A stretch of DNA of 56,221 nt from an uncultured Acidimicrobiaceae bacterium (GTDB taxonomy: Bacteria; Actinomycetota; Acidimicrobiia; Spongiisociales; UBA5794). The first letter of the stretch is position 1. Every line of letters begins with the position of its first letter. The notes beneath the pieces are model-generated. The model was not told where the DNA came from, searched no databases, and worked only from the letters and a program-made list of their open reading frames with translations. Location of the stretch: contig CAYLVM010000005.1 in assembly GCA_964387145.1 (NCBI GenBank), forward strand, positions 1-56,221, read 5' to 3'. Below are positions 2,735 to 56,151 of the stretch, piece by piece. A program made the translations under genes and the position numbers.

Positions 2735-3727
2735 TCAGTCTGAGAACGGTGGACCGGCAGGTCCCTTGCGGACGACCGCCGACCACACTGTCTCATAATG
2801 ATCCCGGTCGTACTGGTCGATGTGGGGAAGTACGAACTCCTCCCACGCAGAGCGCATCGGGTCCTCCATCGCCCCATACATGCGCAGGCCTGCGGGGAAT
2901 CGATCAAGGACTGTTCGCAGAGACATCGGGGTCTCGACGCGTGTTCTCGCGTCACCTGCTGTGAAGGACGTGTTGATCTCAACGGCGAGCTTGGTGAGCA
3001 GCGAGCGGATCTCCGGCTTCATGCCGGGGTGTCGTCTCTCGATCATGACGGCCAGACCCTCCTCTCCTGGGAACGTCTTCTCCCAGATGATCCAACGGTC
3101 TGCGAACGCCTTGTTGAGGGTCTGGGTGCCCGCGTAGTCGCGAAGGTCGGTGGGGTTCAAGGTTCCAAAGATCCGCACGTCGCCACGGAGCTTGATCATC
3201 TCACCGGTTGGGAGTTCGATGGCTTGATGCCGGTCGAGGAGTCCATGGAGGGCGAAGAGCGTCTCGGCTCCTGCAGCGTTGAGTTCGGAGAGGTTGACGA
3301 TCGCCGGCCCACGCAAGGCACGAGTGATGTCTCCGTCCTCCCACCTGCTCTCGGTGCCGCCCTTGCCGTCGCCGTGCAACTTGACGGACCCGATGAGGGT
3401 GATGTCGCGGACTTCACCGGTGAGGGGAATGCGGTAGTACGGGGTCTTGAGACGCGCTGCGAACTGTTCGAGGTCATGATCCTTGCCTGTGCCCATGTGC
3501 CCGCGTAGAGCAAGGTGGAGTGGGGCATCGACAAAGTGCTCGCGACGAACCGCCTCGAGGAGGGCGAGCTTGTACTGCATGCCGAGATCGACGTAGTACG
3601 GGTCCTGTGTCGGGATGTGGTTCAGGCGGATATCGTGATCAGGCACGTCGGATCCGACCTCGGCAACGGGTAGCTCGACATCTGGTCCGATACCCAACGG
3701 GTCGGTGAAGGTGACTGTGTTCGTCAT
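2735..3727 (-). CDS. MoxR-class AAA+ ATPase, CobS/CbbQ/NorQ-like
   Basis: GHMGTGKD P-loop, LEQFAARL, YAGTQTLNKAFADRW (sensor/Arg-finger region). AGGAG RBS before ATG 3727. Confidence 0.8.
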   Translation of the reverse strand: MTNTVTFTDPLGIGPDVELPVAEVGSDVPDHDIRLNHIPTQDPYYVDLGMQYKLALLEAVRREHFVDAPLHLALRGHMGTGKDHDLEQFAARLKTPYYRIPLTGEVRDITLIGSVKLHGDGKGGTESRWEDGDITRALRGPAIVNLSELNAAGAETLFALHGLLDRHQAIELPTGEMIKLRGDVRIFGTLNPTDLRDYAGTQTLNKAFADRWIIWEKTFPGEEGLAVMIERRHPGMKPEIRSLLTKLAVEINTSFTAGDARTRVETPMSLRTVLDRFPAGLRMYGAMEDPMRSAWEEFVLPHIDQYDRDHYETVWSAVVRKGPAGPPFSD

Positions 3728-3738
3728 GGGTGTGTCTC

Positions 3739-5955
3739 CTAGTTGGCAAAGGTTTCGAGTGCCCGGTCGCCAGCGTGGACCCACCAAACGTCGGATCCTG
3801 ATTCGGCGATGCTGCGATACAGCGTCGAGCGAACACCGTCGATCATCGCAGATGCAAGGGTCAGCGGTTGCTCGACGACCTGGGCACGGGAGTACGCCGC
3901 ACGCACGGTGTCGTCACCGATGCCGATCCCGAGCACCGTGGTGCCCGCACGTTCGATGCTGGCAACCGTCTCAGCGAGAGCAGCGACCGAGCCCCTGGTC
4001 ATGCCGTCGGCGAGCACGATGATCATGCGATGACTTGCACGCTGTGCAGTCAGTCGTTCGGCGGCGTGTGCGAGGTTGAACTCATCGACGTTCGCTGCCT
4101 TGTCGAACATCGATACCGGGGGGGAGAGAAGTGGGTTCTTGCGTGCAATACGTGCAGCATCCTGAGGTGCCGCGGCTGTGTAGAACAGTCCGGCGAGCAC
4201 ATCTGAGGAGACTCTCCACCGATCGCGGAAGCTCTTGATGATGTAGTGGTTGACGGTTCTGGTGAGACGTTCAGCGTTGCCTCCCTGGCTCTGCCTGAGG
4301 CCTGCCGTGGCCCGCGTCCGCATCTCACGGTACGAGTGTTCGGTGTCGTTCGAGCTCGTGGCGAACGATCGGTTGAAGATGGCGATCTCGAAGTCGATCT
4401 GGAGTTCGTCCGCGAGCTGGGCAAGGGTCCACGCTCCCAGAAGGGCGGCGGCCATCGCCCACGGAGCCTTGCGGGAACCGAGGCCTCTCGGTTGGAGCAT
4501 CGATGCCGAGCCATCCACGAGGAGGCTCACCGCGTACGAGCGTCGGCTGGGAAGATCCCTGCGTTCGAACATGCGGTTGTAGAGACCGGCACCGAGCAAG
4601 AGGGGCGTGTAGGGAGAGAGATCCCCTGCGTCGAATCCGGAGCGAAGCCCACGGCGTTGGTTGGCAAGGAACAGGGGGTACAGCTCGCCCGAGATACGGT
4701 GTTGGGCAACGCCCCAGTCGAGGGATGCCTGGTCGAGCATCGCCCGGCCCTCACTCGAGAACGTTGCAAAGGTGTGGGGGAAGTCCACGACGAGGAGCTT
4801 TCCTCCTTGACCCGTCGGCAGGTACACGGTGGGTGCCGACGAGACCTTCATGATCTGATCGGTTGCGGGGTCACCGGCAGTTTCGGCGTCACCCTTCTTG
4901 CCTTCGTGAGCAGACACGCTCTGTGCCGCAGCCCTGGTCTGGTCGTATGCATCCCGGTTCGCAAGGGGGGGCGAGACGATCCGTACAGCATCTACCGACT
5001 CGGAGATAGCGGCTGCATCGGCCTCCATCTCCGTCTTCCGTCCGCGCTGGCCGGATGTTGCTGCACCTTCCTGGACCAGGTTGTGCATCTTGGCTACGGA
5101 GAGCAGCTGAAGTGCGATGGTTCCAACTGACCAAGGATCATCGATCTCGGCGACGGGATCCATGAACGCCATTGCATCGTCGATGGCGGGGGCAACGTGG
5201 GGTGCGAGACGTTTCTGGACAGCATCGCGATCTTCATGCCCGCCGGCGATGAGAAAGCATGCGAGAGCGAACTGTCCGAGTGGGCGTGCATTCCCCATGG
5301 CGTGCCCAACCGACGTTCGGTAGAGGTCGCGCAGCACCGACCCCGCCCCCGGGTAGGCGTTGAAGTGGATTCTTTCCTGGCGTGCATCCTCGATCGAGAG
5401 GAAGAGTGCCTCGGCTGCGGGCCCACCGATGGCGTTCAACGCATGGAGGAGGGGCACCGCATCGGGAGGGGTGTCGGATTCTTCGTCGAAGTCGATGTCG
5501 TCTTCAGAGAGTTCCGGACGAACGAGATCCTTGTCCATCTCCCCGAACTCGAAGAGGCCGATGGGAACGGGTGCGCCTTCGGGGTCTTCGTCATCGGCGG
5601 AGGCATCCTCTTTGAACGCGAGCCACTCTCTGGGGATCGGTCGCTCTTCGTCGAGATCCGTCGCGATCAGATGGATGACTTCGTGAAGTGCCGAGGTGAG
5701 TGCAACCTCCGACGGAGTGACCGGCGCCGATCTGGCATATGCCGTTTGGAACACGCCGGGGTCGATGACGACCATGTCCCCGGTGGAGGTCGCCTGGGTT
5801 CCAAGTCGAACCTGGAGTTCGTCGTTGCCCGACAGCGTGCGCGCGAATCTCGTGATGGCAGGGGCCACACGTTGGTAGCGTGCAACCACGGCCTCGATCG
5901 CCCGTTCCTCTGGGGGGAGGATCTCACTGAGAATGGATTGGTCTCTGTCGCGCAT
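3739..5955 (-). CDS. vWA-domain partner protein, CobT/NorD-like
   Basis: MIDAS motif LLVDGSASM, C-terminal IIVLADG and VLGIGIG, acidic linker, CobT-like N-terminus (FARTLSGNDELQV). Lies directly upstream of the AAA+ gene. TACAAT upstream of ATG 5955. Confidence 0.8.
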   Translation of the reverse strand: MRDRDQSILSEILPPEERAIEAVVARYQRVAPAITRFARTLSGNDELQVRLGTQATSTGDMVVIDPGVFQTAYARSAPVTPSEVALTSALHEVIHLIATDLDEERPIPREWLAFKEDASADDEDPEGAPVPIGLFEFGEMDKDLVRPELSEDDIDFDEESDTPPDAVPLLHALNAIGGPAAEALFLSIEDARQERIHFNAYPGAGSVLRDLYRTSVGHAMGNARPLGQFALACFLIAGGHEDRDAVQKRLAPHVAPAIDDAMAFMDPVAEIDDPWSVGTIALQLLSVAKMHNLVQEGAATSGQRGRKTEMEADAAAISESVDAVRIVSPPLANRDAYDQTRAAAQSVSAHEGKKGDAETAGDPATDQIMKVSSAPTVYLPTGQGGKLLVVDFPHTFATFSSEGRAMLDQASLDWGVAQHRISGELYPLFLANQRRGLRSGFDAGDLSPYTPLLLGAGLYNRMFERRDLPSRRSYAVSLLVDGSASMLQPRGLGSRKAPWAMAAALLGAWTLAQLADELQIDFEIAIFNRSFATSSNDTEHSYREMRTRATAGLRQSQGGNAERLTRTVNHYIIKSFRDRWRVSSDVLAGLFYTAAAPQDAARIARKNPLLSPPVSMFDKAANVDEFNLAHAAERLTAQRASHRMIIVLADGMTRGSVAALAETVASIERAGTTVLGIGIGDDTVRAAYSRAQVVEQPLTLASAMIDGVRSTLYRSIAESGSDVWWVHAGDRALETFAN

Positions 5956-6003
5956 GAACTTCCGATTGTACGATGGTGGCAATCTCACTGGGGCGGTTCT
6001 GCA

Positions 6004-6396
6004 ATGCGCTTCAACATTCCAGAGTCGGAGCTGCTGTGGCACTTCGACACGTCGGGTGGTCCGGGAGGCCAGCACGCCAACAAGAGCGCGACGCGTGTTG
6101 TGCTCCGGTTCGGTGTTGCTGAGTCGCGGGCTTTCGACGGATCCACGCGGGATCGGATAGTGAACCGCCTCGGGAGTGAGGTTCGCATCGTTGAGGCGGG
6201 TTCGCGGTCCCAGGCTACGAACCGCAAACGTGCTGTGCGTCGGCTTCACGCGATGCTCGAGGAGGCTGCACGGCCACGACCGCCCCACCGCAAGGCAACC
6301 CGTCCTCCAAGAGCGTCACGCCGCCGCCGCCTCGAGGCCAAACGTTCTCGTGGTCTTCTGAAGCGGCAACGTTCGCAACCTTGGGACGATACGTAG
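6004..6396 (+). CDS. arfB: Alternative ribosome-rescue peptidyl-tRNA hydrolase ArfB
   Basis: SGGPGGQHANK (GGQ motif), RSQATNRKRA, and a basic C-terminal tail RRRLEAKRSRGLLKRQR. Confidence 0.93.
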   Translation: MRFNIPESELLWHFDTSGGPGGQHANKSATRVVLRFGVAESRAFDGSTRDRIVNRLGSEVRIVEAGSRSQATNRKRAVRRLHAMLEEAARPRPPHRKATRPPRASRRRRLEAKRSRGLLKRQRSQPWDDT

Positions 6397-6482: not shown

Positions 6483-7940
6483 ATGGAATCTGGAATGGGG
6501 CCTCTCGCCGCCCCACGTCGTGGCCAGCCGCGGCCCCAGCGCGTCGTGGTGCTCGTCATGGCGGTCGTGCTCGGGCTCGCAGTTCTCGGTTTGGCAATGT
6601 CGTTCGCCAACTCGGCGAGTGCCGAACGAGTAGCTGAGAATGCGTCCTTGCTCCACTGGACGAACTCGGCTCACGGCTCTGCTGCATTGGCTCGAAGCGC
6701 TGTTGGGCAGGCAGTCGTGTTCGCCATCGGTGAGGAGCTTGGAGTTGTAGATGCCCAGGACCGTGCATCGGCGTTGTCCGAGGCCGAGGAGAGTCTGGCG
6801 GCATTCAACCGATGGGCGGATTCAGCGCCACCAGAACTGCTCGTCCAGACGCCGGGCCTCGGTCCTGAGCTCAAGAGGTTCACCGACGCGAGCAGTGAGG
6901 TGCTGCAGCTTCTCGGGAGCGGGGACACTTCCAAGGCAGAAGAGGTACGTGACGGGGTGGTCGAGGAGGCCTACGTTTCGCTCGCAGCGACGGTCGGAGC
7001 GAACCAGCGTCTGGTCGCCGATCGCATAGCCAACAACGAAGACAGGGCTGCGTTGGTCTCCCAGATGCTGCGGCTCTTGGTGACGTTGTTGATTCCAGCG
7101 GTTGCATTGATCGTGTATTGGCGAATCGCGAGACGGCAACTTCGTGAACGGCGTGTGGAGATGAACGCCACGGTGGCTGCACAACATGCGATGATCGCGG
7201 GGGTGTCGCATGAGCTACGTACACCGCTCACATCCATCGTTGGATTCTCCGAGGTTCTGCTGACCGATGAACTCGGGGACCAGGAATCGGTGACCGAGCT
7301 GATCACCGTGATCAATACCGAGGCAGAGCAGCTGGCCCGGATGGTGGATGACCTGTTGGTCGCTGCACGTGTCGACATGGATGAGATTGCCCTCATTCCG
7401 ACGCAGATAGACCCACGGTTCGAGATCGATGTGGTCGCAGCACCGTTCCGTCGAGGGGGTGAGGAGATCCATGTCGAGTGCACCTCAGGGACGATCGAAG
7501 TCGACGTCGAGATGTTCCGGCACGTTCTTCGCAACTTGATATCCAACGCCGTCAAGCACGGTGGGCCGTCGTGCGTGGTGATGGGCACCTGGGGCGACGA
7601 CGAGGTTCGTTTCACGGTGATGGATGACGGGACAGGCGTCGATGAGGCGATAGAGAGAGACCTCTTCAGACCTTTCGTCAACCACGGGGAACGAGCGCTC
7701 CTGAGCGGCAGCGTCGGCCTCGGTCTGGCAGTTTCGCGCGCGCTCGCGCGAAGCATGGGTGGCGAGCTCACCTATGCGCGTTCGGATGGTTGGTCCAGGT
7801 TCTCTCTCACACTCAGTCCGGACGTCGTTGTCACCGACGAGCACGAGAATCCAACACCGGTAGAGGCGGGCGATCTGTTCGACGAGCCGGCCCGTGGTGC
7901 ATCTCGTGCAGCGGCCGCGGCACCGAGTGAGTCTGGATGA
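6483..7940 (+). CDS. Membrane sensor histidine kinase (orphan in window)
   Basis: Two TM segments flanking a helical sensor domain. H-box SHELRTPLTSI, N-box NLISNAVKH, DDGTG and GLGLAVSR boxes. Confidence 0.92.
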   Translation: MESGMGPLAAPRRGQPRPQRVVVLVMAVVLGLAVLGLAMSFANSASAERVAENASLLHWTNSAHGSAALARSAVGQAVVFAIGEELGVVDAQDRASALSEAEESLAAFNRWADSAPPELLVQTPGLGPELKRFTDASSEVLQLLGSGDTSKAEEVRDGVVEEAYVSLAATVGANQRLVADRIANNEDRAALVSQMLRLLVTLLIPAVALIVYWRIARRQLRERRVEMNATVAAQHAMIAGVSHELRTPLTSIVGFSEVLLTDELGDQESVTELITVINTEAEQLARMVDDLLVAARVDMDEIALIPTQIDPRFEIDVVAAPFRRGGEEIHVECTSGTIEVDVEMFRHVLRNLISNAVKHGGPSCVVMGTWGDDEVRFTVMDDGTGVDEAIERDLFRPFVNHGERALLSGSVGLGLAVSRALARSMGGELTYARSDGWSRFSLTLSPDVVVTDEHENPTPVEAGDLFDEPARGASRAAAAAPSESG

Positions 7941-9058
7941 CGCAGATGGGGCAAAGGTTCTCGGTGCCATCGGTGCGGATCGTGTTGGCCGGCATGGCCG
8001 GGGTAGTTGTCTCTCTCGTTGCCCTCACCGTCGCGGTCAGCGCTCTGAGCGGTGACGTTGGAGACTCTTTCCCCGCTGTTGCCTATAACGGGAACACCGG
8101 GACCTTGGACTGGGCGGGACCCTGGGTCGAGATGGGAGAATCCGATGGGCCGACGGTTGGTGTAGTCGATGTGGTCACCAGTGTTCGCTGTAGCGCTGGT
8201 AACTGTCTGCGTATCGGGGGCGATCCGGCAGATGCAGAGGGACTGGGTGTGTGGCGTGAGGTCGACCTCGCCGGTGCATCTTCTGTCGTCCTGTCGTTCA
8301 GTTACCGACGCGAGGTTGCGCTCAGCACCGGTTCTGTGACCGTGGCCGTATCCGCCGACGGCGGGGGTACATGGATCGACCTTGCCACCTACGACTTCGC
8401 TGGGGCTTCCAACGAGTTCGCTGCAAGCTTCGACATCTCGTCATACGCTGCGGTGAATATGAGGGTCAGATTTCTGGGGGCGGGAAGCGCTGTCACCGGA
8501 TACCTGCACTTCGATGACATCGCCATCACCGTCGTTCTGCCCGATGTAGCGACGACGACGACGGCTGCCACGACGACGACGGCTGGGACCACGACGACGA
8601 CTGTTGGGACCACGACGACGACGGCTGCCACGACGACGACGGCTGGGACCACGACGACGACGACGGCTGCCACGACGACGAGCACGACCATCGCGTCGTT
8701 GACCTCTGCATCGACGACGACGGCTGCCACGACGACGAGCACGACCATCGCGTCGTTGACCTCTGCATCGACAACGACAACGACGATGGCCGATACGATC
8801 ACAGCGATGGGAACTCCCCCTGCCAGCGCAGGTGGAGTCGTCGGTTCGTTGAGGAGGCTCACTCCGATGAAGGATCTCACCGTTGTCTTCGTCACGACGG
8901 TCGAGGTCCTCGGCGAGAACGCTCTCTCAGGGGTCATCCTCGGCGTACTGGTCGGGTGGCTGGCGATCCTCGGCATCGATCGACGCGCCGGGGGCCTGGT
9001 GCAGGGATGGTGGCCACGTGTATCTGGCACAGCGAGCAGCAGGGATAGCGATACCTGA
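7937..9058 (+). CDS. Exported/surface protein: beta-sandwich domain, Thr-rich linker, C-terminal TM anchor
   Basis: Hydrophobic N-terminal signal, beta-rich domain with one Cys pair, long poly-Thr tract, C-terminal hydrophobic helix followed by RR. ATGA overlap with the kinase stop. Confidence 0.7.
   Translation: MTQMGQRFSVPSVRIVLAGMAGVVVSLVALTVAVSALSGDVGDSFPAVAYNGNTGTLDWAGPWVEMGESDGPTVGVVDVVTSVRCSAGNCLRIGGDPADAEGLGVWREVDLAGASSVVLSFSYRREVALSTGSVTVAVSADGGGTWIDLATYDFAGASNEFAASFDISSYAAVNMRVRFLGAGSAVTGYLHFDDIAITVVLPDVATTTTAATTTTAGTTTTTVGTTTTTAATTTTAGTTTTTTAATTTSTTIASLTSASTTTAATTTSTTIASLTSASTTTTTMADTITAMGTPPASAGGVVGSLRRLTPMKDLTVVFVTTVEVLGENALSGVILGVLVGWLAILGIDRRAGGLVQGWWPRVSGTASSRDSDT
8550..8785 (+). 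repeat. Coding tandem repeats (ACG-rich; one ~60-nt and one 57-nt duplication)
   Basis: 8552-8600 recurs at 8612-8660. A 57-nt unit encoding TTTAATTTSTTIASLTSAS occurs twice in tandem (about 8658-8771). Confidence 0.9.
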
Positions 9059-9087: not shown

Positions 9088-9161
9088 GATCGGATGCTAG
9101 GTCGACACCGGTAGCCGGGACGAAGATTCCCATGAGGCTGGTGCCTCGCACCTCCTCGAGC
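9088..9161 (+). pseudogene. Decayed fragment of the M16 peptidase gene (direct repeat of 13467-13540)
   Basis: 68/74 identical by manual alignment, including a 32-nt exact core GGTCGACACCGGTAGCCGGGACGAAGATTCCC. The TGG codon is TAG in this copy. Confidence 0.9.
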
Positions 9162-9471
9162 GCCCCCCTCATCGTCCGTTCCCCGAGGGGGGGGTCTGGC
9201 TGAGAACGCGAGTCTCGAGGATGTTGCTCGACCGATTTCACCGAGGCGGAAAGAGACACGTCCGTTGCTGGCACCACGTCGGTGCCGCCTCGGGTGGAAG
9301 CGTGCGCGCGCTCACCTGAAGCGCCAACGCGGCTGCCCACAGGACGACTCCCTCTGGAGGCGGGAGATTGTGTGGAAGGTGTACTCCGTCGAGTGCGGAT
9401 GCACGGCGCACGGTTCGAGAAGGAACCCCCTTTACCTTCCAGTGGAGTGGAGGGTATATGGTGGAGATATT

Positions 9472-10068
9472 GTGACAAATGCACACCACCCATCCACCGC
9501 AACGACATCGGACGAGCGGAGGTTTCTGAGAGCACCGCTACGTGTCGGCATCGTATTCACCCTCCTCGTGTTGGGACTGAACCTCGGTACGAACCTCCTC
9601 ATCGGGGGGTTCGATCCTCAGATACACCAACTCCTCCTTCGGGACGTGTCGCCGACGTCACTCGTTGTACCGGCAAACCCGCCGGCGTTCCAGGAGATGC
9701 CAACACCCAAGACCGAGGGTGATGTTGCGCACATGGCCTTCGAGGTGGTGCTCACCGACTTCTTCCCACAGAGCATGTACAACACGCTCTACATCTTCCT
9801 GATCAGCCTCTTCGCTGCGAACGCCCCTTTCATCGGAGATCACGAGCGACGGCTCATCACCTGGATGGTTGGGGTGGGCGGATTCACGTTCGCTCTCGTA
9901 TTCCTCATCACCGCACTCCTCACACCCACGTTCGGCCCTGCCGGTCACCAGATAGCCCGAACGTGGCTCTTCCCGATCCCGGCCTTGATGATCGCCGCCG
10001 CGTTCACCTGGACGATATTCGCCTACATCGCCGGGCTGTTCATCCCGAGTCCGAAAGGCGCCAACTGA
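9472..10068 (+). CDS. Integral membrane protein, possibly a divergent RnfA/NqrE-like subunit without Cys
   Basis: GGAG RBS then GTG at 9472, about 4-5 TM helices, stop 1 nt before rnfC. Segments EVVLTDFFPQSMYNTLYIFL...NAPFIG, GFTFALVFL and ALMIAAAF...IAGL resemble the remembered RnfA consensus. Confidence 0.55.
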   Translation: MTNAHHPSTATTSDERRFLRAPLRVGIVFTLLVLGLNLGTNLLIGGFDPQIHQLLLRDVSPTSLVVPANPPAFQEMPTPKTEGDVAHMAFEVVLTDFFPQSMYNTLYIFLISLFAANAPFIGDHERRLITWMVGVGGFTFALVFLITALLTPTFGPAGHQIARTWLFPIPALMIAAAFTWTIFAYIAGLFIPSPKGAN

Positions 10069-10069
10069 C

Positions 10070-11392
10070 ATGAAGCTTCTCCGACGACACAGGCACGTTC
10101 CCGCACTCGAAGCCCGCAAGGAGGCAACGGCCGGCGCGGCGACGCAACCGTTGCCTGCCCCCGACGTCGTCGCCATACCTCTGCGTCAGCACATCGGAGA
10201 GACCTGTGAGCCGACCGTGCACGCTGGTGACCGTGTCCGTATCGGCGACCTCATCGGAGAGAGCTCTGCTGTGGTGAGTGCGAATGTTCATGCTTCCGTC
10301 TCGGGGCGTGTACGCGACGTCGGGCCGTACCCACACCCACTGGGAAGCGACGTCGACGCTGTTGTGATCGAGAATGATGGAGACGATGAGTGGGCGGACC
10401 TATACGTCGTCCCCGACCCCGAAGGTGCAGGACCCGATGCGTTACGAGCAGCCGTTCGACGCGCAGGAGTAGCGGGCATGGCGGGGGCAGGGTTCCCGGC
10501 AGCTGTCAAGCTCGATCCTCCTCCCGGGTCTGACATCGACACGGTGATCATCAACGCGATGGAGGGTGAGCCCTATCTGTCTGCCGATCACCGCATGGCG
10601 CTCGAGCACGCGGACGCAGTGGTCGACGGCGCTCGTTGGATCATGCGTATCGTCGATGCTCCCCACACAGTGATCGCAGTGGAGAGCGACAAGACGGATG
10701 CCGCTACGGCCCTCGAACGAGCAGCCGAGGCTGCCGGCGTCTCCTCCGTACTCGAGGTGCAGCTCCTGCCGCGCGACTATGCGGCTGGCGCCGAGAAGAT
10801 CCTGGTTCAGTCCATCCTCGGTCGAGAGATCCCGGGTGGCGGGTTTCCCTACGACGTCGGCGTGGTGAGCCAGAACGTGAGTACCACTGTTGCGATCTCA
10901 CAAGCCATTCGTCTCGGCCGTCCACTCACCGAACGCGTGATCACCGTTGCAGGTGAAGGTGTGCAACGGCCTGGCAACTATCTCGTGCGAATCGGAACGT
11001 CCTTCGACCATATCCTCGAGCAGGTCGGCACGACCGGTGACGTCGACCGGGTCATCATGGGTGGCCCGATGATGGGGATTGCCCAGGGCGATCTGTCGGT
11101 CCCGGTGATCAAGCCGACGACGGGCATCGTTGCGTTGTCGAGCGCCGAGTCCCGTCGGGGCGCGGAGGTTGCATGTATCCACTGCGCATGGTGTGTCGAG
11201 GTCTGCCCCATCGGTCTCATGCCCTTCTTCCTCGTGGACATGATCCGGATCGGCGAGCCGCTCACGGCCGAGGCGTCTCACCTGTTCGACTGCTTCGAGT
11301 GCGGTCTTTGCGACTATGTGTGTCCTTCCAACATCCCCCTTGTCGAGGTGATCCGCTCGGGAAAGAGCACCATCTCGGAGACCCGACGATGA
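10070..11392 (+). CDS. rnfC: RnfC/RsxC-like electron transport subunit (FMN/NADH site, two 4Fe-4S)
   Basis: PLRQHIG, HASVSG, AGVAGMAGAGFP, EPYLSADHR, IMGGPMMG, CIHCAWCVEVCP and CFECGLCDYVCPSNIPL. Confidence 0.92.
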   Translation: MKLLRRHRHVPALEARKEATAGAATQPLPAPDVVAIPLRQHIGETCEPTVHAGDRVRIGDLIGESSAVVSANVHASVSGRVRDVGPYPHPLGSDVDAVVIENDGDDEWADLYVVPDPEGAGPDALRAAVRRAGVAGMAGAGFPAAVKLDPPPGSDIDTVIINAMEGEPYLSADHRMALEHADAVVDGARWIMRIVDAPHTVIAVESDKTDAATALERAAEAAGVSSVLEVQLLPRDYAAGAEKILVQSILGREIPGGGFPYDVGVVSQNVSTTVAISQAIRLGRPLTERVITVAGEGVQRPGNYLVRIGTSFDHILEQVGTTGDVDRVIMGGPMMGIAQGDLSVPVIKPTTGIVALSSAESRRGAEVACIHCAWCVEVCPIGLMPFFLVDMIRIGEPLTAEASHLFDCFECGLCDYVCPSNIPLVEVIRSGKSTISETRR

Positions 11393-12300
11393 ACGTCCCA
11401 GTATCCCCACACGTACGGCGATCACTGGACAAGCAACGCGTGATGTGGGAGGTGATCGCTGCCCTACTCCCCGCTGCAGTGTTCGGTATCTGGTACTTCG
11501 GACCCGCCGAAACCCTTCCACAGTTGACGGCTTCGATCGCCGGCGCTGTGGTTACCCAGGCGTTCGTGGAGCGACTTCGGCGTCGACCCATCACTGTGAT
11601 GGACGGTGCCCCGTGGGTGACCGGCCTCATACTCGGGATGAGTCTTCCCCCTGGACTCAACCCACTCATCGCGCTCGCCGGAGGGGCGTTCGCCACTGGA
11701 GTGGTCAAAGCGTTCGTCACCACGTCGACCGGTCGAAGCCTCTTGAACCCGGCCATGGTCGCCAGAGTTCTCATCGTATCTGAGTTCCTCGTACCGGCGA
11801 CCACGTTCACCGTGGATGGAGTTTCGACGGCGACGCCGCTGACGTCGAGTTCCCCGACGAGCTACCTCGATCTCTTCATCGGGGCGCGTATCGGCTCGAT
11901 CGGCGAGACGACGGCTGTTCTGCTGCTGCTTGGCGGTGGATACCTTCTGTGGCGTGGGATCATCCGATGGCATCTCCCCGTTGCCTACCTCGTTGGTGTC
12001 GTGGCGACGTCACTGATCCTCGGTCGTGATCCGTTCTTCGACCTTCTCGCAGGCGCGAGCATCCTCACCGCCTTTTTCATCATCACCGATCCGACCACGT
12101 CGCCCGCCACGGTTCCAGGTCGGGTGGGATTCGGATTCGCGACAGCGACGATCGCGACGTTCATCCGTATCACGACACTGTTCCCGACAGGGGAAGCGTT
12201 GGCAGTCGTCATCGGCAACTTCGCTACACCGTTCATAGATCGTGTCGTGACGAACCGCGTGTACGGGACACGGAGGCGCGCAGGAAGGGCATCGACATGA
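11389..12300 (+). CDS. rnfD: RnfD/NqrB-family membrane subunit
   Basis: SPHVR...MWEVIAALLPA, VTGLILGMSLPP, NPAM, flavinylation-type motif DGVSTATPL, GSIGET, TDPTTSP. ATGA overlap with rnfC. Confidence 0.9.
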   Translation: MNVPVSPHVRRSLDKQRVMWEVIAALLPAAVFGIWYFGPAETLPQLTASIAGAVVTQAFVERLRRRPITVMDGAPWVTGLILGMSLPPGLNPLIALAGGAFATGVVKAFVTTSTGRSLLNPAMVARVLIVSEFLVPATTFTVDGVSTATPLTSSSPTSYLDLFIGARIGSIGETTAVLLLLGGGYLLWRGIIRWHLPVAYLVGVVATSLILGRDPFFDLLAGASILTAFFIITDPTTSPATVPGRVGFGFATATIATFIRITTLFPTGEALAVVIGNFATPFIDRVVTNRVYGTRRRAGRAST

Positions 12301-13301
12301 TCTCACGAAGACGCTTCATCCGGGATATGTCGGGCGTTGTCGCTGGTGCCGGACTCGTTGCGCTGCCCGTCTGGCAGTGGACGGCCCAGCGACAGAGAGT
12401 CGAGCGGTTCACCCGTCCGATGATGGGCACCGATGTCGAGATCGTTCTCCTCGGTCTCGGGCGTGATGCCGCAGTCTCAGCTGCAGAACATGCCTTCGTC
12501 ACGATGAAAGCGGTTGCGGATCAGCTCACGACGTTCGATCCACAGAGCGATCTGAGTGGCCTCAACGCCTCGGCGGGGAAGGGGCCGGTCCGCGTTGGTC
12601 GGGATCTCGAAGCCGTGCTGCTCCAGGCGAATACGATGCGAACTCGCACCGAGGGTGCTTTCACGCCTGCGATCCTTCCCCTCAGCCTGCTCTGGCGACC
12701 ACCCCGAACACAGGTCCCCGAAGCCGTCGCGATAGAAGCGGCTCTCGAGGCGGTGTCGCGGGCGGAGGTACGTGTGCCATCGACGGGTTGGGGTGAGGTT
12801 GCCACGACCACACGTCTCGACTTCGGGGGCATCGCGAAGGGGTACGCAGTAGATCGGGCGGTCCAATCGCTCAGGGCAGCAGGGGTCACCGATGGAATCG
12901 TCGATGCCGGTGGTGACCTCAGACTTCTCGGGTCGCGTGGTGGCCAACCGTGGCGTATCGGTATTCCAAACCCAGATCACCCACAGCAGATCGCACGTGT
13001 CCTGCACCTTCGCGATGCTGCGGTCGCAACGTCAGGAGGGTACGAGCGCTTCTTCGTGGTCGATGGTGTCCGTTATCACCACATCGTTGACCCTCGTACC
13101 GGGTATCCGGCACGCTCGACCACGTCGTTCACCGTCGTGCTTCGAGATGGCACGTCGGCAGACGCTGCTGCAACCGCCGGATTCGTACTCGGACCCGGGG
13201 CAGGACTCGACTTCGTAACCAGCATCGGAGGCGAAGCCCTTGCTCTGGGGCCGGACGGCTCATGGCAGTACACGAAAGGGCTCGAAGACCGGCGGGCGTG
13301 A
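12297..13301 (+). CDS. apbE: FAD:protein FMN transferase ApbE with twin-arginine signal
   Basis: MMGT, SDLSGLN, LDFGGIAKGYAVD, DAGGDLR, ATSGGYERFF, YHHIVDPRTGYP, ADAAATA. N-terminal SRRRFI. Confidence 0.93.
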   Translation: MISRRRFIRDMSGVVAGAGLVALPVWQWTAQRQRVERFTRPMMGTDVEIVLLGLGRDAAVSAAEHAFVTMKAVADQLTTFDPQSDLSGLNASAGKGPVRVGRDLEAVLLQANTMRTRTEGAFTPAILPLSLLWRPPRTQVPEAVAIEAALEAVSRAEVRVPSTGWGEVATTTRLDFGGIAKGYAVDRAVQSLRAAGVTDGIVDAGGDLRLLGSRGGQPWRIGIPNPDHPQQIARVLHLRDAAVATSGGYERFFVVDGVRYHHIVDPRTGYPARSTTSFTVVLRDGTSADAAATAGFVLGPGAGLDFVTSIGGEALALGPDGSWQYTKGLEDRRA

Positions 13302-13389
13302 TGTCGCGTCACACGTTCTCAGCCATGTGGCCGGTGTTTCGTTGACAAGTCGACTTGGTGAGTCCACGTGTTCCTATCATCTCTGATCG

Positions 13390-14637
13390 ATGCACTACGA
13401 ACTCACGACACTCCCCAACGGTCTACGGATCATCACAGAGCACATGCCTTCGATCCGTTCGGCAACGATCGGTTGCTGGGTCGACACCGGTAGCCGGGAC
13501 GAAGATTCCCGTGAGGCTGGTGCCTCACACTTCCTCGAACACCTCCTCTTCAAGGGGTCGGAGGACTGGTCAGCGCGCCGGATCTCTGAGACCTTCGATG
13601 GGCTCGGGGCGCGTCACAACGCCTTCACATCCAAGGAGTACACGTGTTTCTGGACCAGGACCCGTGACGAGGATCTCCCGGTCGGTGTCGAGATCCTCGG
13701 TGAGATGCTCCAGTTGCCTTCGTTTCGCCAGGAGGAGATCGACTCGGAGCGCAACGTCGTTCTCGAAGAGATCAACATGAACGAGGACGATCCGACCGAT
13801 GTCGCCCATGAGCAGTTCATCGAGGCGATGTGGGGATCACATCCGCTCGCCGCACCGATCCTGGGTACGAAGGAGTCGATCACCGGGATGTCGCGCACGA
13901 CCATCCGGTCGTACTGGGAGCGAAGGTACTCGCCGCACACGACCGTCATCGCCGTTGCAGGGAACCTGCCGGAGAACCTCATCGAACTTCTCACCGACCG
14001 CTTCGGCTCATGGGACGGAACCGGCGGTGAGAGGGTGTCTGTCGAACCGACGGTCACCGCCACCGTCGGTTTGCGCACCAAGGACACGGAACAGGCGCAT
14101 CTGATCTTCGGTTCACCGTCGCTCGTACGCGACGATGATCGTCGATTCGCTCTGACCATTCTCGACCACGTGCTTGGTGGCGGCATGTCGTCACGGCTCT
14201 TTCACGAGATTCGTGAGACGCGTGGCCTTGCCTACGCCGTGCACAGTTTTCGTATGCCGTTCCTGGATGCGGGAGCCTCCGCGGTGTACGTCGGTACGAC
14301 ACCATCCCAGGTCGACGAAGTCCTCAAGATCGTGAGGGCACAACTCGACGAGCTCATCGCCAACGGCATCTCGGACGAGGAGTTGGAGCGAGCCAAGGGC
14401 CACATCAAGGGGTCGCTCGCGCTTGGGCTCGAAGATTCGAGTTCGCGGATGAACCGTCTCGGGCGGAACGAGCTGACGGGGATCGACCACCTCTCCGTCG
14501 ATGAGACCGTTGAGAGGATCGCGCAGGTGACCAACGACGACATCAAGCAGGTTGCGAAGATCGCCTACTCCGGGCCGTACGTCCTCGGTGCGGTTGGTCC
14601 GTTCGATCGCGACGATCTCGAGGAGTACGTCAGATGA
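13390..14637 (+). CDS. M16 (pitrilysin/insulinase) family zinc peptidase
   Basis: GASHFLEHLLFKG (inverted HxxEH), NAFTSKEYT, LGGGMSSRLFHEIRETRGLAY. Confidence 0.95.
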   Translation: MHYELTTLPNGLRIITEHMPSIRSATIGCWVDTGSRDEDSREAGASHFLEHLLFKGSEDWSARRISETFDGLGARHNAFTSKEYTCFWTRTRDEDLPVGVEILGEMLQLPSFRQEEIDSERNVVLEEINMNEDDPTDVAHEQFIEAMWGSHPLAAPILGTKESITGMSRTTIRSYWERRYSPHTTVIAVAGNLPENLIELLTDRFGSWDGTGGERVSVEPTVTATVGLRTKDTEQAHLIFGSPSLVRDDDRRFALTILDHVLGGGMSSRLFHEIRETRGLAYAVHSFRMPFLDAGASAVYVGTTPSQVDEVLKIVRAQLDELIANGISDEELERAKGHIKGSLALGLEDSSSRMNRLGRNELTGIDHLSVDETVERIAQVTNDDIKQVAKIAYSGPYVLGAVGPFDRDDLEEYVR

Positions 14638-39843: not shown

Positions 39844-39999
39844 CCGTCAGGTGATGGGATGGTGCCAGGATCCGGGGGTCGCCCGACGGCAGGGATCGGG
39901 GCCCATATCCTCGTCGAGTCCGGTCCCGCCTAGCATGTGCGCGCTGCGCTCCGGGGAGTGGGCGCTGCTGGGAACGGGTTACTCGCCTGGAGGGACGGG

Positions 40000-42900
40000 A
40001 TGCACACCGAGGCGTTGAGAGCGAATCTCGAGAGAACAGCAGTCGCGGTGGTCATCCCCGATGAGCAACTCGTCCTCCTCGAGATCGCTGCCCCCATGTC
40101 TGGCGTCTATCAGAACACCCGGCAACTCCTCGAAGAGATCAATCACCGCTACGTCGGGTGGGCCGACACCATCTCGGAGCTCCACGGCCGCGCGATGCGC
40201 GACTTCTTCTACTACAACGGCCACGTCGATGGCGTGCACGCGCTCGACGTGTACTGCGACCTCTACGACAAGGCTGTTCGAGAGGCCACGCCGATCCCTC
40301 TGCGCGAGGATGCGATCCGGTGGTGGCTTGCGTATCTCGAGAAGATCGTCACAGATTCTGGAGAGGGACTCGAACGCAACCTCGGTGTCGTGCAGCGATC
40401 GATCGCACGGATCTCGGCCCATATTGCAGACGAACCACACCTCGCAGCCCCCGGCTCGGCGCGCTTGCACCGTCTCGCTGCGTCGCTGCACCACAGCGTG
40501 GGCCCGACAGATGTCACGTGCGCTGAAGCGATGGAGCTGCTGCGTGACGTACTCGACCGCGTCTACGTCCGATGGCTCACTCGGGAGGACCCCGCAATGT
40601 GGTATCTGGATCTCATCGGCCCAGATCAGGGAAACAGCACAATCCCCGACGCCATCTCAGCGCTTTCACACGCAACGCTCACAGCGTATCGACGAGACAT
40701 CGCGGCGATGGACACGTCCGTGCCGGCAATGCCCGATGCCGATCGCCTGCTCGGGTTGCCGGATCACCTCGCGATCACGCGTACGTATCTCTTGGCTGCC
40801 GACGAGATCGACCGTCGCGAGGGAACGGCCGACGGATCGGTACACAACCGGGCTCTGTGGCTGTGCTATCTGCTCGGCGAAGAGTTGCTGGCACCCATCC
40901 ATGAGAAGGCGCTCTGGGCGCTTGCCCGCATCAGTCGTGCACTCGTTGCCGACGCTGCGGACGAGACGTTCGAACACTTCGTCGAGGAGGTGTTCACGAC
41001 GCTGCGCGCCGGCGACGACGGCTTCGCATCGGGAGCCCTCGATTTCGTGAGAAGTCTCGGCATGTCAACGATCGATGGCACCCGCCAGGACAGGATCGAC
41101 CTGGTCATGGACGAGATTCTCACGCTGGAGTTCCACCGGCCTGAGTTCGCCGGGTTCACCGACGAGTGGGGTATACGGGTGAACCCCAATCACCTCAAGA
41201 ACATCCGCACGTATCTCGGGATCATCGATACCGATCCATGGCGAGCGCGCCACCTGCTTGCAGGCCTGCTCATCCACCTCGAGACGGGAGGCGTGTTCAT
41301 CGCCGACACCGACCTGTTTCAAAAGGACGTCTCGGAGTTGTTGTCCGCCGACATCGCCCCGGTGTACGACCAGGTGATCCATCTCCTTCGTCGGTTCCCC
41401 GTCTACTTCAACGACATAGGAGCGGAGGGCCAGTTGCGGGCCGTGTCCACCCGCCTCGACGAGATCGATGCTCGTCAGGATCCGATCTGTCACTTCCTGA
41501 GGAAGCAGAGTCACGTCGAGAGCAACCCGATGCTCGTCCCGATCGTTGAACAGGTCGGCGCGTTCTGGGCAAGCGGGGACGGTTCCGTCCTTGCGAAGTA
41601 CCTTCCCGAGGAGGCACACGGAGACCTCGACGTCGAGACGGACCGGTACCTTGGCCTTCACAGCGTCTTTTCTCGCCTCGTGGAGTCGGCTGGCCCGATC
41701 GAGAGACTGTTCCAGATGCCGGTATCGGACGTCCAAGCGCTCGTTGAGGACATGACACAAGAGACGGAACACGACAGGGAGAAGGCGATCCTGCTGTTCC
41801 GCCTTCGCTTCGAACTGGCCCGCAAGTACACGCTGAGCCACGCCGACCTGATGGAACGGTTGATTGCATTTCACGGCGTGTCGACGAGAGTCGTGCGCGG
41901 CATCGAATCCCACATCGATCAAGGAAGGTACCTCCCAGCGATCGACGTGCTCCTTACGATCATGGAAGATCTGAAGCGCCAGGTACTCGACCGCAGACCA
42001 ACACAAGCATCCGAGGAGATCTACCGAAAGCGACACATCGGAACCGGCATACCGTCGATGTACGGGCGCTATCGGGAGGAGAAGCTCGAAGCCGTGGGGC
42101 TCTCCTTTCGGATCGCCTCGCTCGTAGGTGCCCTCCTGGACCGGATGCTTGCAGCCCAGGGATTCGAGACACTCGATGGTGACGCCCTCGCCGATGCAGG
42201 CGACCTGTTGCGGCTGCTCCAGCGGGCGTTGCGCGTCGAAGGGTACGAATCCTGGAATCTCGAGACGACGCTATCGATGTTCGATGAGGCCATCGTCACC
42301 GGAGGCGTAGCTCGCGAAGAGTTCGCAGACATCGTTCGAGCGATCTCGAAGGCAGTGCAGTCGATCGTCCAGGAACGCCTGTTCGAGGGGTATAGCGAGG
42401 TCTTCGGCATCATCGGGCGGCAACTCGCCATCGAGGGCTCCGGCTCAGACGCGGAGCGCGAGAAGGTCGTGATCAGAGCGTACGAGACGTTCCTGCGCAC
42501 CTTGATCGGTGAGAGCCTGGCACTTCAGCGTGTCGACAACATCACGGCACGCCTCCTCGAAGCACTTTCGGATGACACGAAGCCATGGTCGGTCGACGTG
42601 TCCCGTTCGCTGCCGTCCGCTGAATCGGTGGATCTCGTCCCGCTGTCGGGTGGTGACCGATCCAAGGGACGGATATCCCTCGGCAACAAGGGGTTCATGC
42701 TGACACGCCTCGCCGGTTTCGGCTTCCCGATACCACCCGGATTCATCATCACAACCGACCTCTCTCGCAACGCGATCGGGAGGAAGCTCGAAACGATCCC
42801 CGACGAGTTGTTCGACAGGGTCGTTGCGCGAATCGGTGTTCTCGAAGCCGGTGCCCGCGGCCGCTTCGGCGATGAGGACCGCCCGCTGCTGCTCTCTGTA

Positions 42901-44175
42901 CGTGGAGGTGCACCGTTGAGTATGCCCGGCATGCTCGATTCGTTCCTCAACGTGGGCATCAACCCCGACATCGTCGAGGGGTTCGCCTCGACGTCGGGAA
43001 GTCCGTGGGCTGCGTGGGACGCGTATCGCCGCTTCCTGCAGTTCTGGGGGATGAGCCAGGGACTCGATCGAGATCTGTTCGACGATGCTATGTCGGGAGC
43101 CAAGGAAGAGTCCGGTGTTCCGAAGAAGGCGTTCCTGTCGGTACCAAGGATGCGACAACTTGCCTTCGAGTACCGTGCGTTGCTTGCCGACCATGATGTT
43201 CCCGTTGTCGACGAGCCGTTCGCTCAGCTTCGTCGCTGTATCGGCCTCGTTGTCGACTCGTGGAACTCCTCGATGGCGACGATGTATCGCGAGGAGATGG
43301 GGATCTCCCATGGATGGGGCACTGCGGTGATCATCCAGCGAATGGTGTACGGCAATCTCAGTCCCCAGTCGGGTACGGGGGTCGCTCTGGTTCGACGGAG
43401 CGGTTCGAACGGATCGGTCGAGATTGCAGGGGATTATGTGTCTTACGGCCAGGGAGACGACGTCGTCAGCGGCCTCGTCGAGACGTTCCCCGTCAGCAAC
43501 GCACAGCGTACGGACCCGAGGTTGCACACGTTCCGCTCCCTCGAGCGGGACCGCCCTCCCATCTACGCTGAGCTTGCACATCTCGGGCGATCCCTCCTCA
43601 TCGAGTATCGGCTCCCCGACCAGGAGCTCGAGTTCACGTTCGAATCGGAGAGCCCTGCGGATCTCCACGTTCTCCAGGCACGAGAGGCGATCCGTGAACC
43701 CCTCGACGTCGTTGCGACCTTCGTCCAGACCGAGGAGTTGCAGGCGTCGCGAATCGGTGTTGGGATCGGTGTCGGCGGGGGAGCAGGGTGCTACCGCGTC
43801 GCGTTGGATCAGGATGACATCGATCGTCTCAGGAGGGAGCACCCGGACGATCAGATACTGCTCGTCCGGCCCGATACGGTTCCCGACGATATCGAGCTGC
43901 TCATCAACGCAGACGCGCTCCTCACCGCGCTCGGCGGTGCGACGAGCCACGCCGCTGTGGTCGCAAGAACCCTCGGGCGGACGTGCGTCGTGGGATGTCG
44001 CGCCCTACGTGTCTTCGAGCAGGAAGGGTTGGTCGAGATAGGCGGCACAACGCTGCATCCGGGCGATATCGTTTCGGTCAGTGGAGTCGATGGCTCCGTG
44101 TTCGTCGGCAGACAAGCCGTCGAGCTCGCCGAGCACCCACACTGGGTCACCATGGAGATCGGATCACACGAATGA
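40000..44175 (+). CDS. Large PPDK-like dikinase: unknown N-terminal region + ATP-grasp + phospho-His swivel, no PEP-binding barrel
   Basis: LGNKG, PIPPGFII, LLSVRGGAPLSMPGMLD, QRMVYGN, SGTGV, QGDDVVSGL, GGATSHAAVVAR (His codon 43948-43950). The protein ends about 75 aa later. GGAGG RBS before ATG 40000. Confidence 0.85.
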   Translation: MHTEALRANLERTAVAVVIPDEQLVLLEIAAPMSGVYQNTRQLLEEINHRYVGWADTISELHGRAMRDFFYYNGHVDGVHALDVYCDLYDKAVREATPIPLREDAIRWWLAYLEKIVTDSGEGLERNLGVVQRSIARISAHIADEPHLAAPGSARLHRLAASLHHSVGPTDVTCAEAMELLRDVLDRVYVRWLTREDPAMWYLDLIGPDQGNSTIPDAISALSHATLTAYRRDIAAMDTSVPAMPDADRLLGLPDHLAITRTYLLAADEIDRREGTADGSVHNRALWLCYLLGEELLAPIHEKALWALARISRALVADAADETFEHFVEEVFTTLRAGDDGFASGALDFVRSLGMSTIDGTRQDRIDLVMDEILTLEFHRPEFAGFTDEWGIRVNPNHLKNIRTYLGIIDTDPWRARHLLAGLLIHLETGGVFIADTDLFQKDVSELLSADIAPVYDQVIHLLRRFPVYFNDIGAEGQLRAVSTRLDEIDARQDPICHFLRKQSHVESNPMLVPIVEQVGAFWASGDGSVLAKYLPEEAHGDLDVETDRYLGLHSVFSRLVESAGPIERLFQMPVSDVQALVEDMTQETEHDREKAILLFRLRFELARKYTLSHADLMERLIAFHGVSTRVVRGIESHIDQGRYLPAIDVLLTIMEDLKRQVLDRRPTQASEEIYRKRHIGTGIPSMYGRYREEKLEAVGLSFRIASLVGALLDRMLAAQGFETLDGDALADAGDLLRLLQRALRVEGYESWNLETTLSMFDEAIVTGGVAREEFADIVRAISKAVQSIVQERLFEGYSEVFGIIGRQLAIEGSGSDAEREKVVIRAYETFLRTLIGESLALQRVDNITARLLEALSDDTKPWSVDVSRSLPSAESVDLVPLSGGDRSKGRISLGNKGFMLTRLAGFGFPIPPGFIITTDLSRNAIGRKLETIPDELFDRVVARIGVLEAGARGRFGDEDRPLLLSVRGGAPLSMPGMLDSFLNVGINPDIVEGFASTSGSPWAAWDAYRRFLQFWGMSQGLDRDLFDDAMSGAKEESGVPKKAFLSVPRMRQLAFEYRALLADHDVPVVDEPFAQLRRCIGLVVDSWNSSMATMYREEMGISHGWGTAVIIQRMVYGNLSPQSGTGVALVRRSGSNGSVEIAGDYVSYGQGDDVVSGLVETFPVSNAQRTDPRLHTFRSLERDRPPIYAELAHLGRSLLIEYRLPDQELEFTFESESPADLHVLQAREAIREPLDVVATFVQTEELQASRIGVGIGVGGGAGCYRVALDQDDIDRLRREHPDDQILLVRPDTVPDDIELLINADALLTALGGATSHAAVVARTLGRTCVVGCRALRVFEQEGLVEIGGTTLHPGDIVSVSGVDGSVFVGRQAVELAEHPHWVTMEIGSHE

Positions 44176-55921: not shown

Positions 55922-56055
55922 TGCTGTCTCGCTGAACGTCGGGTATCGGAAGGTACCGCCTTGGAGCGGCTGTGTCACCGAGATGTGGCATCGTTGGGCC
56001 GATGACGGCAGCGAGCGGCGTGCCGCCCCGGGGGTAGAAACGATCAGCCTCGTGG

Positions 56056-56061: not shown

Positions 56062-56070
56062 CCAGTGCAC

Positions 56071-56143: not shown

Positions 56144-56151
56144 CCGATGAG

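Follow-up and report, generated by a model that had tools for sequence, protein, structure and literature searches.

In the Rnf complex (RnfABCDGE; structures 7ZC6, 8AHX and 9ERI), electrons run along a chain formed by the flavin mononucleotide (FMN) of RnfC, two [4Fe-4S] clusters, the riboflavin of RnfD and the FMN of RnfD, with steps of 7.7-11.7 Å between the riboflavin and its neighbours. RnfD uses its N- and C-terminal arms to keep RnfC in place (PMC9588780), and the contact between RnfG and RnfD is small (PMC9588780, 10.1101/2024.06.21.599731). Ion movement by RnfD is disputed. A Na+ channel was placed in RnfD/NqrB by some authors (Hau 2023, Vitt 2022), whereas others regard this part as a conduit only (Kumar 2024/25); RnfD was also proposed to serve electron transfer alone, with no ion path found there and ions passing via RnfA/E (10.1101/2024.06.21.599731). 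Partial systems have been described as well. The NQR/RNF-like systems of Meheust et al. 2021 (eLife, PMC8238504), found mostly in Actinobacteria and the Candidate Phyla Radiation, come with an ApbE, and a one-way flow of electrons out of the cell, starting at NAD(P)H, was proposed for them; they consist of a fusion of NqrB/RnfD with NqrF (PF00175) and an FMN_bind subunit, and the flavinylated Thr is lost in their RnfD-like part (follow-up 2024, PMC10979944). Here we analyse a four-gene module, g1-rnfC-rnfD-apbE, in a stretch of 56,221 nucleotides (the window) from an uncultured Acidimicrobiaceae bacterium (contig CAYLVM010000005.1). Full-text literature searches found no description of a system made of RnfC and RnfD only, or of Rnf in Acidimicrobiia.

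Judged by its conservation across related loci, the four-gene set is a distinct module under strong purifying selection. We give about an even chance to the explanation that it acts as a metal-inducible electron conduit from NADH to the outside of the cell: a self-contained operon for a complex of g1, RnfC and RnfD and for an exported flavin transferase. Its genes are as follows.

9472-10068, + strand: g1, orphan membrane subunit of 198 amino acids (aa), GTG start, four predicted transmembrane (TM) helices, no cysteine
10070-11392, + strand: rnfC, RnfC-type subunit of 440 aa, NuoF-like NADH/FMN domain, two [4Fe-4S] motifs
11389-12300, + strand: rnfD, RnfD-type subunit of 303 aa, PF03116 the one domain
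12297-13301, + strand: apbE, ApbE-family FAD:protein FMN transferase of 334 aa

The original prediction, made from the letters of the window, had placed four tightly coupled genes at 9472-13301, and the open reading frames (ORFs) lie exactly there. Their junctions read, in order, TGAcATG, ATGA and ATGA, and these overlapping stops and starts indicate translational coupling of the four genes. Positions 9102-13399 are spanned, with a single difference, by one contig of an independent vent metagenome assembly (run X2), which rules out an assembly chimera.

The module has relatives, which form a compact clade. A search with RnfD returned 26 clusters at 67-100% identity, after which identity drops to 38% (canonical RnfD, from Halanaerobium and others); no canonical RnfD is more than 39% identical to a clade RnfD. 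Among one genome for each of 185,579 GTDB species, the clade RnfD occurs in four only, all of Acidimicrobiia type, and the module sequence is present in hydrothermal-vent and marine-sediment metagenomes of several studies. The clade members are uncultured, fragmented metagenome-assembled genomes (MAGs). The architecture is not unique to one genome, a point on which the original prediction had hinged: all four genes stand in the order g1-rnfC-rnfD-apbE on 11 distinct contigs (the window, L001 (= L002 = L008), L003, L005, L007 (= L092), L009, L088, L090, L094, L095 and L096), in at least six unrelated neighbourhoods, with g1 at its head at every complete locus. Pairwise dN/dS (the ratio of nonsynonymous to synonymous substitution rates) is 0.06-0.21 for each of the four genes, and 0.09-0.16 for the unsaturated pair formed by the window and L006 (dS 0.22-0.38). 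For rnfC, pairs within the main clade give 0.11-0.16 and a comparison with L005, the locus that diverges most, gives 0.21; the values are 0.12-0.21 for apbE and about 0.1 for g1, so that selection on the orphan gene is as strong as on RnfC and RnfD. Both the architecture and the promoter described below are conserved across lineages with saturated synonymous sites. Relaxed selection or pseudogenisation is ruled out by the dN/dS values.

The cofactor chain of the RnfC-RnfD arm appears to be intact. RnfC has the Pfam domains RnfC_N, Complex1_51K, SLBB and 4Fe-4S dicluster, scores 466 bits against TIGR01945 (cutoff 246), and aligns end to end with 8AHX_C (A. vinelandii, E = 6e-97), 7ZC6_C and 9ERI_C, the RnfC of C. 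tetanomorphum and A. woodii being among these. Both of its CxxCxxCxxxCP motifs are intact (CIHCAWCVEVCP and CFECGLCDYVCP). RnfD matches PF03116 over its full length (255 bits) and aligns with 7ZC6_D (E = 5.5e-48) and 9ERI_D; its score against TIGR01946, 185.7, is under the cutoff of 207. Its DGVSTATPL aligns with DGVTTATPL of C. tetanomorphum, which makes Thr149 the counterpart of the flavinylated T153 there and of T156 in A. woodii, and this Thr is invariant in 26 of the 26 clade clusters. With residue roles taken from PMC9588780, PMC9293633 and 10.1101/2024.06.21.599731, the riboflavin-site residues Asn120 (of NPA) and Asp234 (of TDP) are retained (N124/D248 in C. tetanomorphum, N123/D249 in A. 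woodii, N203/D346 in NqrB), as are Glu173, the equivalent of E185 near the covalent FMN, and the N-terminal SPH(V/I)R arm (SPHVR in the window), which is the arm buried in RnfC. The last gene encodes an ApbE-family protein (253 bits against PF02424) with a twin-arginine (Tat) signal, MISRR(R/H/L)F(I/L/V)R, conserved in the N-termini of eight clade members (MISRRRF... in the window), which would place flavinylation outside the cytoplasm. The two 4Fe-4S motifs, the flavinylation Thr and the dedicated ApbE had all been read correctly in the original prediction.

The same is true of the divergence of RnfC and RnfD that it had reported. RnfC carries NAMEGEP in place of the canonical NG(A/G/S)ECEP, and the signature N(A/V)MEGEP is fixed in all clade RnfC. 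In RnfD, the window has KAFVTTSTGRSLLNPA where canonical proteins have K..(F/Y)GG.G.N..NPA; the clade consensus is K.F(V/L)(T/V)TSTGR(S/T/N)L.NPA against K...GG.G.N..NPA, and the replacement of GGxGxN by T(T/V)STGR(S/T/N) is fixed in all 26 clusters. Since these motifs are fixed clade-wide, they are not sequencing noise. By the primer sequences in PMC9293633, the GGxG motif corresponds to the N200/N203 riboflavin motif of NqrB and not to its G140/G141 quinone site. We also discarded a reading of TSTGRS as a phosphate loop like that of flavodoxins, since NqrB has TGR at the same position. A column-by-column comparison of 23 clade with 87 canonical RnfD sequences found further fixed changes, the most notable being at a Glu invariant in canonical RnfD (87 of 87; Glu62 in C. 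tetanomorphum) that is Gln57 in all 23 clade sequences (codon at about 11557-11559).

How does the module compare with the known systems? It is close to Rnf in what it has: its RnfC is about 40% and its RnfD 35-38% identical to the Rnf subunits over their full lengths, and the NADH/FMN site, the two [4Fe-4S] motifs, the flavinylated Thr, the riboflavin Asn/Asp pair, the RnfC-anchoring arm of RnfD and maturation by ApbE are common to both. It differs in lacking RnfB, RnfG, RnfA and RnfE in the operon or nearby, with the orphan four-TM g1 in their place, in its changed GGxGxN and NGxECEP motifs, in the Gln at the invariant Glu, and in its metal-type promoter. Queries from two canonical operons gave no tblastn match to RnfA, RnfB, RnfG or RnfE anywhere in the 56 kb of the window or, with 10-kb flanks, at the clade loci tested; for L094-L096 the precomputed Pfam gene tables, the only source used there, list no RnfA/E or FMN_bind family, and Pfam scans found no Rnf or FMN_bind domain in the other genes of the window. 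As a control, the same queries recovered RnfA, RnfB and RnfG in 67 of 76 canonical loci, and RnfE in 71 of 76, within 10 kb of rnfD. With RnfB missing from these local searches, the module cannot be a ferredoxin-linked enzyme, and with RnfA/E likewise missing it is without the proposed ion path. We consider it likely that the module works without RnfABEG.

Na+-NQR (NqrA-F) is a more remote relative, RnfD being homologous to NqrB and RnfC to NqrA, with the equivalents of N203/D346 present; however, the module has no NqrF, NqrC, NqrD or NqrE and no NqrB N-terminal quinone-site helices, and its RnfC has cofactors that NqrA lacks. With the NQR/RNF-like systems it shares being partial, actinobacterial and accompanied by an ApbE (apbE is present at 11 of the 11 complete loci). 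Unlike them, it has a separate RnfC with Fe-S clusters and an unfused RnfD (PF03116 only) that has kept its Thr, and an orphan subunit instead of an FMN_bind protein, none of which is encoded in the operon or in the window. The module thus falls outside both the six-subunit Rnf family and the NQR/RNF-like family, and it probably works like the latter. It was not counted in the Meheust survey because Rnf was defined there by RnfB, and NQR/RNF-like by the fusion.

The subunit that sets the module apart is g1. It has 18 homologues, all of the same clade, and no match in Pfam, NCBIfam or the PDB sequences, even at E = 10; a Foldseek search of its model against the PDB returned only generic four-helix bundles (best E = 0.26). 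An exhaustive profile search of 1.8 billion representatives added only P0139 (E = 1e-23) and P0140, which are encoded by adjacent genes on contig L086, match the C- and N-terminal parts of g1, respectively, and are followed by rnfC. This g1 is split into 3179-3508 (the N-terminal TM-plus-loop part) and 3678-4295 (the C-terminal 3-TM part); the distant g1 homologue in this lineage is 36% identical, and the rnfC that follows (4490-5590), where the contig ends, is 46% identical to window RnfC. The linkage of g1 with rnfC therefore survives at a much greater distance. Genes for a histidine kinase with PAS and GAF domains and for a response regulator of the LuxR type lie upstream of the split g1.

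We rejected g1 as a diverged RnfA, RnfB, RnfE or RnfG: hhalign gave probabilities below 1%, against 100% for the RnfA-RnfE control, and g1 has no Cys and no flavinylation motif. The alignment of its homologues shows H52, H87, H159, M76, M88, E75, D84, E91 and D96 to be invariant. By the positive-inside rule, both termini of g1 and its TM2-TM3 loop would be cytoplasmic, which puts the invariant His, Met and acidic residues, by prediction, on the extracytoplasmic face. The outer loops of P0139 and P0140 cannot be aligned with those of g1, and they are likewise rich in His, Met and acidic residues.

These invariant residues, together with the DNA just upstream of g1, are the most informative clue to function, and one that the original prediction had missed. 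A generic scan for sigma-70 elements and terminators found nothing, and the following elements surfaced only by alignment of the upstream DNA across loci.

9431-9436, + strand: -35 element TTTACC, from the cross-locus upstream alignment
9434-9455, + strand: palindrome ACCTTCCAGTGGAGTGGAGGGT, within the 20-nt spacer, overlapping the -35 element by 3 nt
9457-9462, + strand: -10 element TATGGT, with the GTG start at 9472, 9 nt further on

The cross-locus consensus is made of TTGAC(C/A), the palindrome ACCTTCCAG-N4-CTGGAAGG, TAnnnT, and a start codon 9 nt on. This block was seen in 15 of the 17 contigs with upstream DNA, before g1 or, in L005, ahead of the SPW gene lying 5' of g1. The motif has one match in the window, with 0.11 expected by chance. 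The 9 nt between the -10 element and the start codon imply an mRNA that is leaderless or nearly so, and favour the GTG at 9472 over the longer gene models of the databases. A search for an FMN or other riboswitch 5' of g1 found none, whether with the Rfam gathering thresholds or with E values up to 1.

Promoters activated by MerR-family proteins are defined by a strong palindrome inside a promoter spacer of 19 or 20 bp, which is the layout of our block, and the signal of HmrR is ACCTTCCAG-(3)-CTGGAAGG (PMC1526738), while the CueR core is CCTTCC-N7-GGAAGG and overlaps the -35 element by 3 bp (PMC8169799). The arms of our operator are identical to the HmrR signal and contain the half-sites of the CueR core. 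The block thus resembles CueR/HmrR promoters (E. coli PcopA and others) in the palindrome between -35 and -10, the 3 bp shared with the -35 element, the over-long spacer and the arms. It differs from them in a gap of 4 rather than 3 nt (core N8 rather than N7) and a spacer of 20 rather than 19 bp, in its actinobacterial host, and in the genes controlled, a redox module rather than an efflux ATPase or a multicopper oxidase. From these likenesses we take it to be a putative MerR-type, HmrR/CueR-like promoter-operator. The operon is probably metal-inducible, and its predicted activator is a CueR/HmrR-type protein of the MerR family.

Several features of the related loci touch on the same subject. 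The MerR-type operator also precedes genes for SPW-family (PF03779) membrane proteins beside the module: in L001/L008 (12143-12535, - strand, own operator at 12581-12604), in L093 (813-1202, - strand, own operator at 1251-1274) and in L005 (7583-7978, + strand, operator at 7506-7529), where the SPW gene is the first of the operon. The C-termini of these proteins are His-rich (e.g., HGGDHDHMAHGSH); the window has no SPW gene. Directly after apbE, L005 has a convergent MerR-family gene of heavy-metal type (11902-12411, - strand), with a PAS histidine kinase gene upstream on the same strand, and the closest solved relatives of this MerR-family protein are CadR, MerR and CueR. ArsR-family regulators adjoin the module in L007, L090, L094 and L095.

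One sub-lineage has a copper-site assembly cluster upstream of the module (L094, 3187-6342; L095, 2206-5338; L007, 284-1114), composed of genes for a SIP-type FAD protein, a protein without assigned family, Sco1/SenC, PCuAC (PF04314) and Caa3_CtaG. The Sco1, PCuAC and Caa3_CtaG genes lie 1.5-4 kb upstream in L094 and L095; the L007 contig starts within the cluster, of which it has only the end with CtaG, next to an ArsR regulator. Between the ArsR-family gene and the promoter of g1, in divergent orientation, L094 (7756-7944, - strand) and L095 (7731-7925, - strand) have an ORF of 62-64 aa without a Pfam match, in which two Cys-Cys pairs are conserved (..GCCGG.. and, close to the C-terminus, ..CC..); its product may be a metal-binding peptide.

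The link between the module and metals is based on the operator arms, the operator sites shared with SPW genes, the MerR-family gene of L005, the copper-chaperone and ArsR neighbours and the vent habitat. From the type of promoter, the outer face of g1 with its many His and Met residues and the life at vents, we infer that a soft metal ion is the inducer and possibly the acceptor, with copper as the leading candidate and Ag, Au, Hg and Cd-type metals as other candidates.

The conduit that we propose would work as follows. The products of g1, rnfC and rnfD would form a three-subunit membrane complex, matured by ApbE, that amounts to the NAD(H)-side electron-transfer arm of Rnf, lacking RnfB for ferredoxin input, RnfG as FMN shuttle and the RnfA/E pair. 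The FMN of RnfC would oxidise NADH, and the two [4Fe-4S] clusters of RnfC would pass the electrons to the flavin that RnfD binds non-covalently in its cytoplasmic half, and from there they would reach the FMN attached by ApbE to Thr149, near the outer face. In place of RnfG and RnfA/E, g1 would sit beside RnfD, and its outward His, Met and acidic residues would provide the exit site. The likeliest acceptor would be a soft metal ion in bound form, copper for instance, or a partner protein involved in metal handling. Such outward flow would be helped, not opposed, by the inside-negative membrane potential, and expression would be switched on by the CueR/HmrR-type activator of the MerR family.

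We do not hold all parts of this proposal with the same confidence. That electrons flow outward from NADH seems to us evenly balanced. That a metal ion is the direct acceptor is possible, if somewhat doubtful. Taken further, the complex of g1, RnfC and RnfD might represent an unrecognised class of metal resistance or handling, a copper- or soft-metal-induced, NADH-powered transmembrane reductase whose g1 subunit binds the metal outside and takes electrons from the FMN of RnfD; we offer this as a tentative suggestion, with the chances rather against it. The original prediction had already read the module as a possible stand-alone transmembrane conduit. The data favour that reading insofar as the module is distinct and under selection, and it is consistent with the structural work on RnfC and RnfD. 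The concept is less new than was implied, because Meheust et al. 2021 had proposed one-way partial systems in Actinobacteria, of a different make-up.

A number of observations weigh against the metal-inducible conduit. The block is missing from L096 and from the distant L086, the central gap of the operator (4 nt) is one base over that of HmrR and CueR sites, and the window has no gene for a cognate MerR regulator. The MerR-family protein of L005 has Cys77, Cys109 and Cys120, the three-Cys pattern of divalent-metal sensors and not that of CueR. MerR-type promoters serve redox and drug sensors too. Four candidate sequencing runs gave flat coverage over intergenic DNA, which marks them as metagenomic DNA rather than RNA. 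It is not obvious that the cell would be protected if extracellular Cu(II) were reduced to Cu(I), and the window flanks, otherwise housekeeping in the Pfam scans, point to no electron acceptor. We infer the contact between g1 and RnfD from gene linkage alone, and the AlphaFold2 model of g1, a four-helix bundle, is of moderate confidence (predicted local distance difference test score, pLDDT, of 66). Finally, the lack of RnfA, RnfB, RnfE and RnfG appears established for the window and the related loci, a local scope that follows from all members being fragmented MAGs; the original prediction was right that RnfB, RnfG and RnfE are missing at this level, but their absence from the whole genome is not supported.

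One alternative is an outward conduit that ends on a protein rather than on a free metal ion. The complex would then be an extracytoplasmic reductase for protein repair or cofactor delivery, acting on Sco1/PCuAC, on oxidised thiols or methionines of exposed proteins, or on the SPW protein, and metal or redox stress would induce it by way of a MerR or SoxR-like sensor. The MerR-type promoter is common to redox sensors such as SoxR, and E. coli Rsx, a homologue of Rnf, acts on SoxR. The SPW genes, with their identical operator, may be co-regulated with the module, and the Sco1, PCuAC and CtaG genes are its upstream neighbours in L094 and L095 (CtaG also in L007). Yet, this copper-chaperone neighbourhood is limited to one sub-lineage, the module has no conserved companion gene for a carrier, be it thioredoxin-like, Msr-like or other, and the operator arms fit CueR/HmrR and not the SoxR box. 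We therefore regard a protein acceptor of this kind as unlikely, although it is the best of the alternatives.

Electrons could also leave the chain earlier, from the non-covalent flavin of RnfD to a quinone site formed with g1, which would make the complex an NADH:menaquinone oxidoreductase, i.e. a respiratory NADH dehydrogenase. There is a precedent in Na+-NQR, where NqrB, the homologue of RnfD, hands electrons on from riboflavin to quinone. It is precisely the motif of the riboflavin pocket that is remodelled in the clade (GGxGxN to TTSTGRS), and these organisms have genes of an aerobic chain, such as CtaG. But the quinone site of NqrB is built of N-terminal amphipathic helices that are not in RnfD, and the RnfD of the window is short, at 303 aa. 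The retained outward FMN Thr and the dedicated, exported ApbE would be superfluous if electrons left from the flavin on the cytoplasmic side, and a metal-type inducible promoter would be unusual for a core dehydrogenase. These arguments make a quinone reductase quite unlikely.

It is improbable, in our view, that the module is one part of a canonical Rnf whose RnfA, RnfE, RnfG and RnfB are encoded elsewhere and assemble with its RnfC, RnfD and ApbE, leaving g1 as an accessory. RnfC and RnfD retain every canonical cofactor site, and the searches for the four other subunits cover only the window and the related loci. Against such a split, about 90% of the sampled canonical loci hold all six genes together, none of the missing four lies within 10 kb at the clade loci (by tblastn, and by the Pfam gene tables for L094-L096), RnfD has fixed changes at positions that are canonically invariant, and the operon has a metal-type promoter of its own. 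A ferredoxin-dependent pump would also be unexpected in lineages with genes for the assembly of a caa3 oxidase.

The direction of flow might be reversed, with an external low-potential donor reducing the FMN of RnfD and, through it, NAD+; ions might also move through RnfD. The physiological flow in the RnfD-to-RnfC arm of Rnf has this direction, and the residues once proposed to line a Na+ path in RnfD (the equivalents of D248, E185 and N124) are retained. However, no donor-oxidising enzyme is linked to the module, such flow would have to run against the membrane potential, no ion path in RnfD was found in recent work (10.1101/2024.06.21.599731), and the Glu that is canonically invariant is a Gln here; we judge inward flow to be very improbable. 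Last, a functionless, decaying remnant of an Rnf operon, for which one could invoke the four of six canonical genes not found locally, is effectively refuted, as the original prediction had argued from the intact frames, by dN/dS values of 0.06-0.21, nowhere near 1, and by an architecture and promoter kept across lineages with saturated synonymous sites.

The surroundings of the module in the window are those of a housekeeping region, with genes of the dapB, rnj, ftsK, recA, rny, miaB and rimO types in the Pfam scans, and a screen of the flanking genes for an acceptor found none conserved across all contexts. The gene directly upstream of the module (7937-9058, + strand) has no Pfam match; its product has hydrophobic segments at both ends and a long Thr/Ala-rich tract that stems from tandem repeats of 18, 21, 39 and 57 nt (8550-8778), within which independent assemblies break. 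This gene overlaps the stop codon of a histidine-kinase gene (6483-7940), and L001 and L009, which are syntenic loci, have neither of the two at this place. These two loci do share, at the same position, the pair formed by an 849-aa protein without Pfam match (3739-6288, - strand) and the adjoining AAA_5 (MoxR-like) ATPase (2735-3787, - strand). Farther along the window, an unusually long ORF of 1412 aa (39937-44175, + strand) has ATP-binding domains of pyruvate-phosphate-dikinase type and phosphoenolpyruvate-utilising mobile domains only in its C-terminal third, the N-terminal stretch of about 900 aa being without Pfam match. A tRNA-Gly(GCC) gene (56071-56145, + strand) overlaps the 5' end of a mechanically called BrkB-family ORF (55076-56176, - strand), so the true start of the latter must be further downstream.

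If the metal-inducible conduit is right, the RnfC-RnfD arm of the ancient Rnf/Nqr family would be reusable as an independent wire that leads from NADH to the outside of the cell, and the catalogue of ApbE-dependent extracytoplasmic electron-transfer systems would be extended. The module would also offer a natural minimal RnfCD complex for the dispute on whether RnfD/NqrB alone moves ions. The promoter of copper-regulator type and the His/Met-rich g1 would tie respiratory-type flavin chemistry to metal stress in vent Actinobacteria, and these same features of promoter and subunit would give both g1 and the SPW family a testable role.

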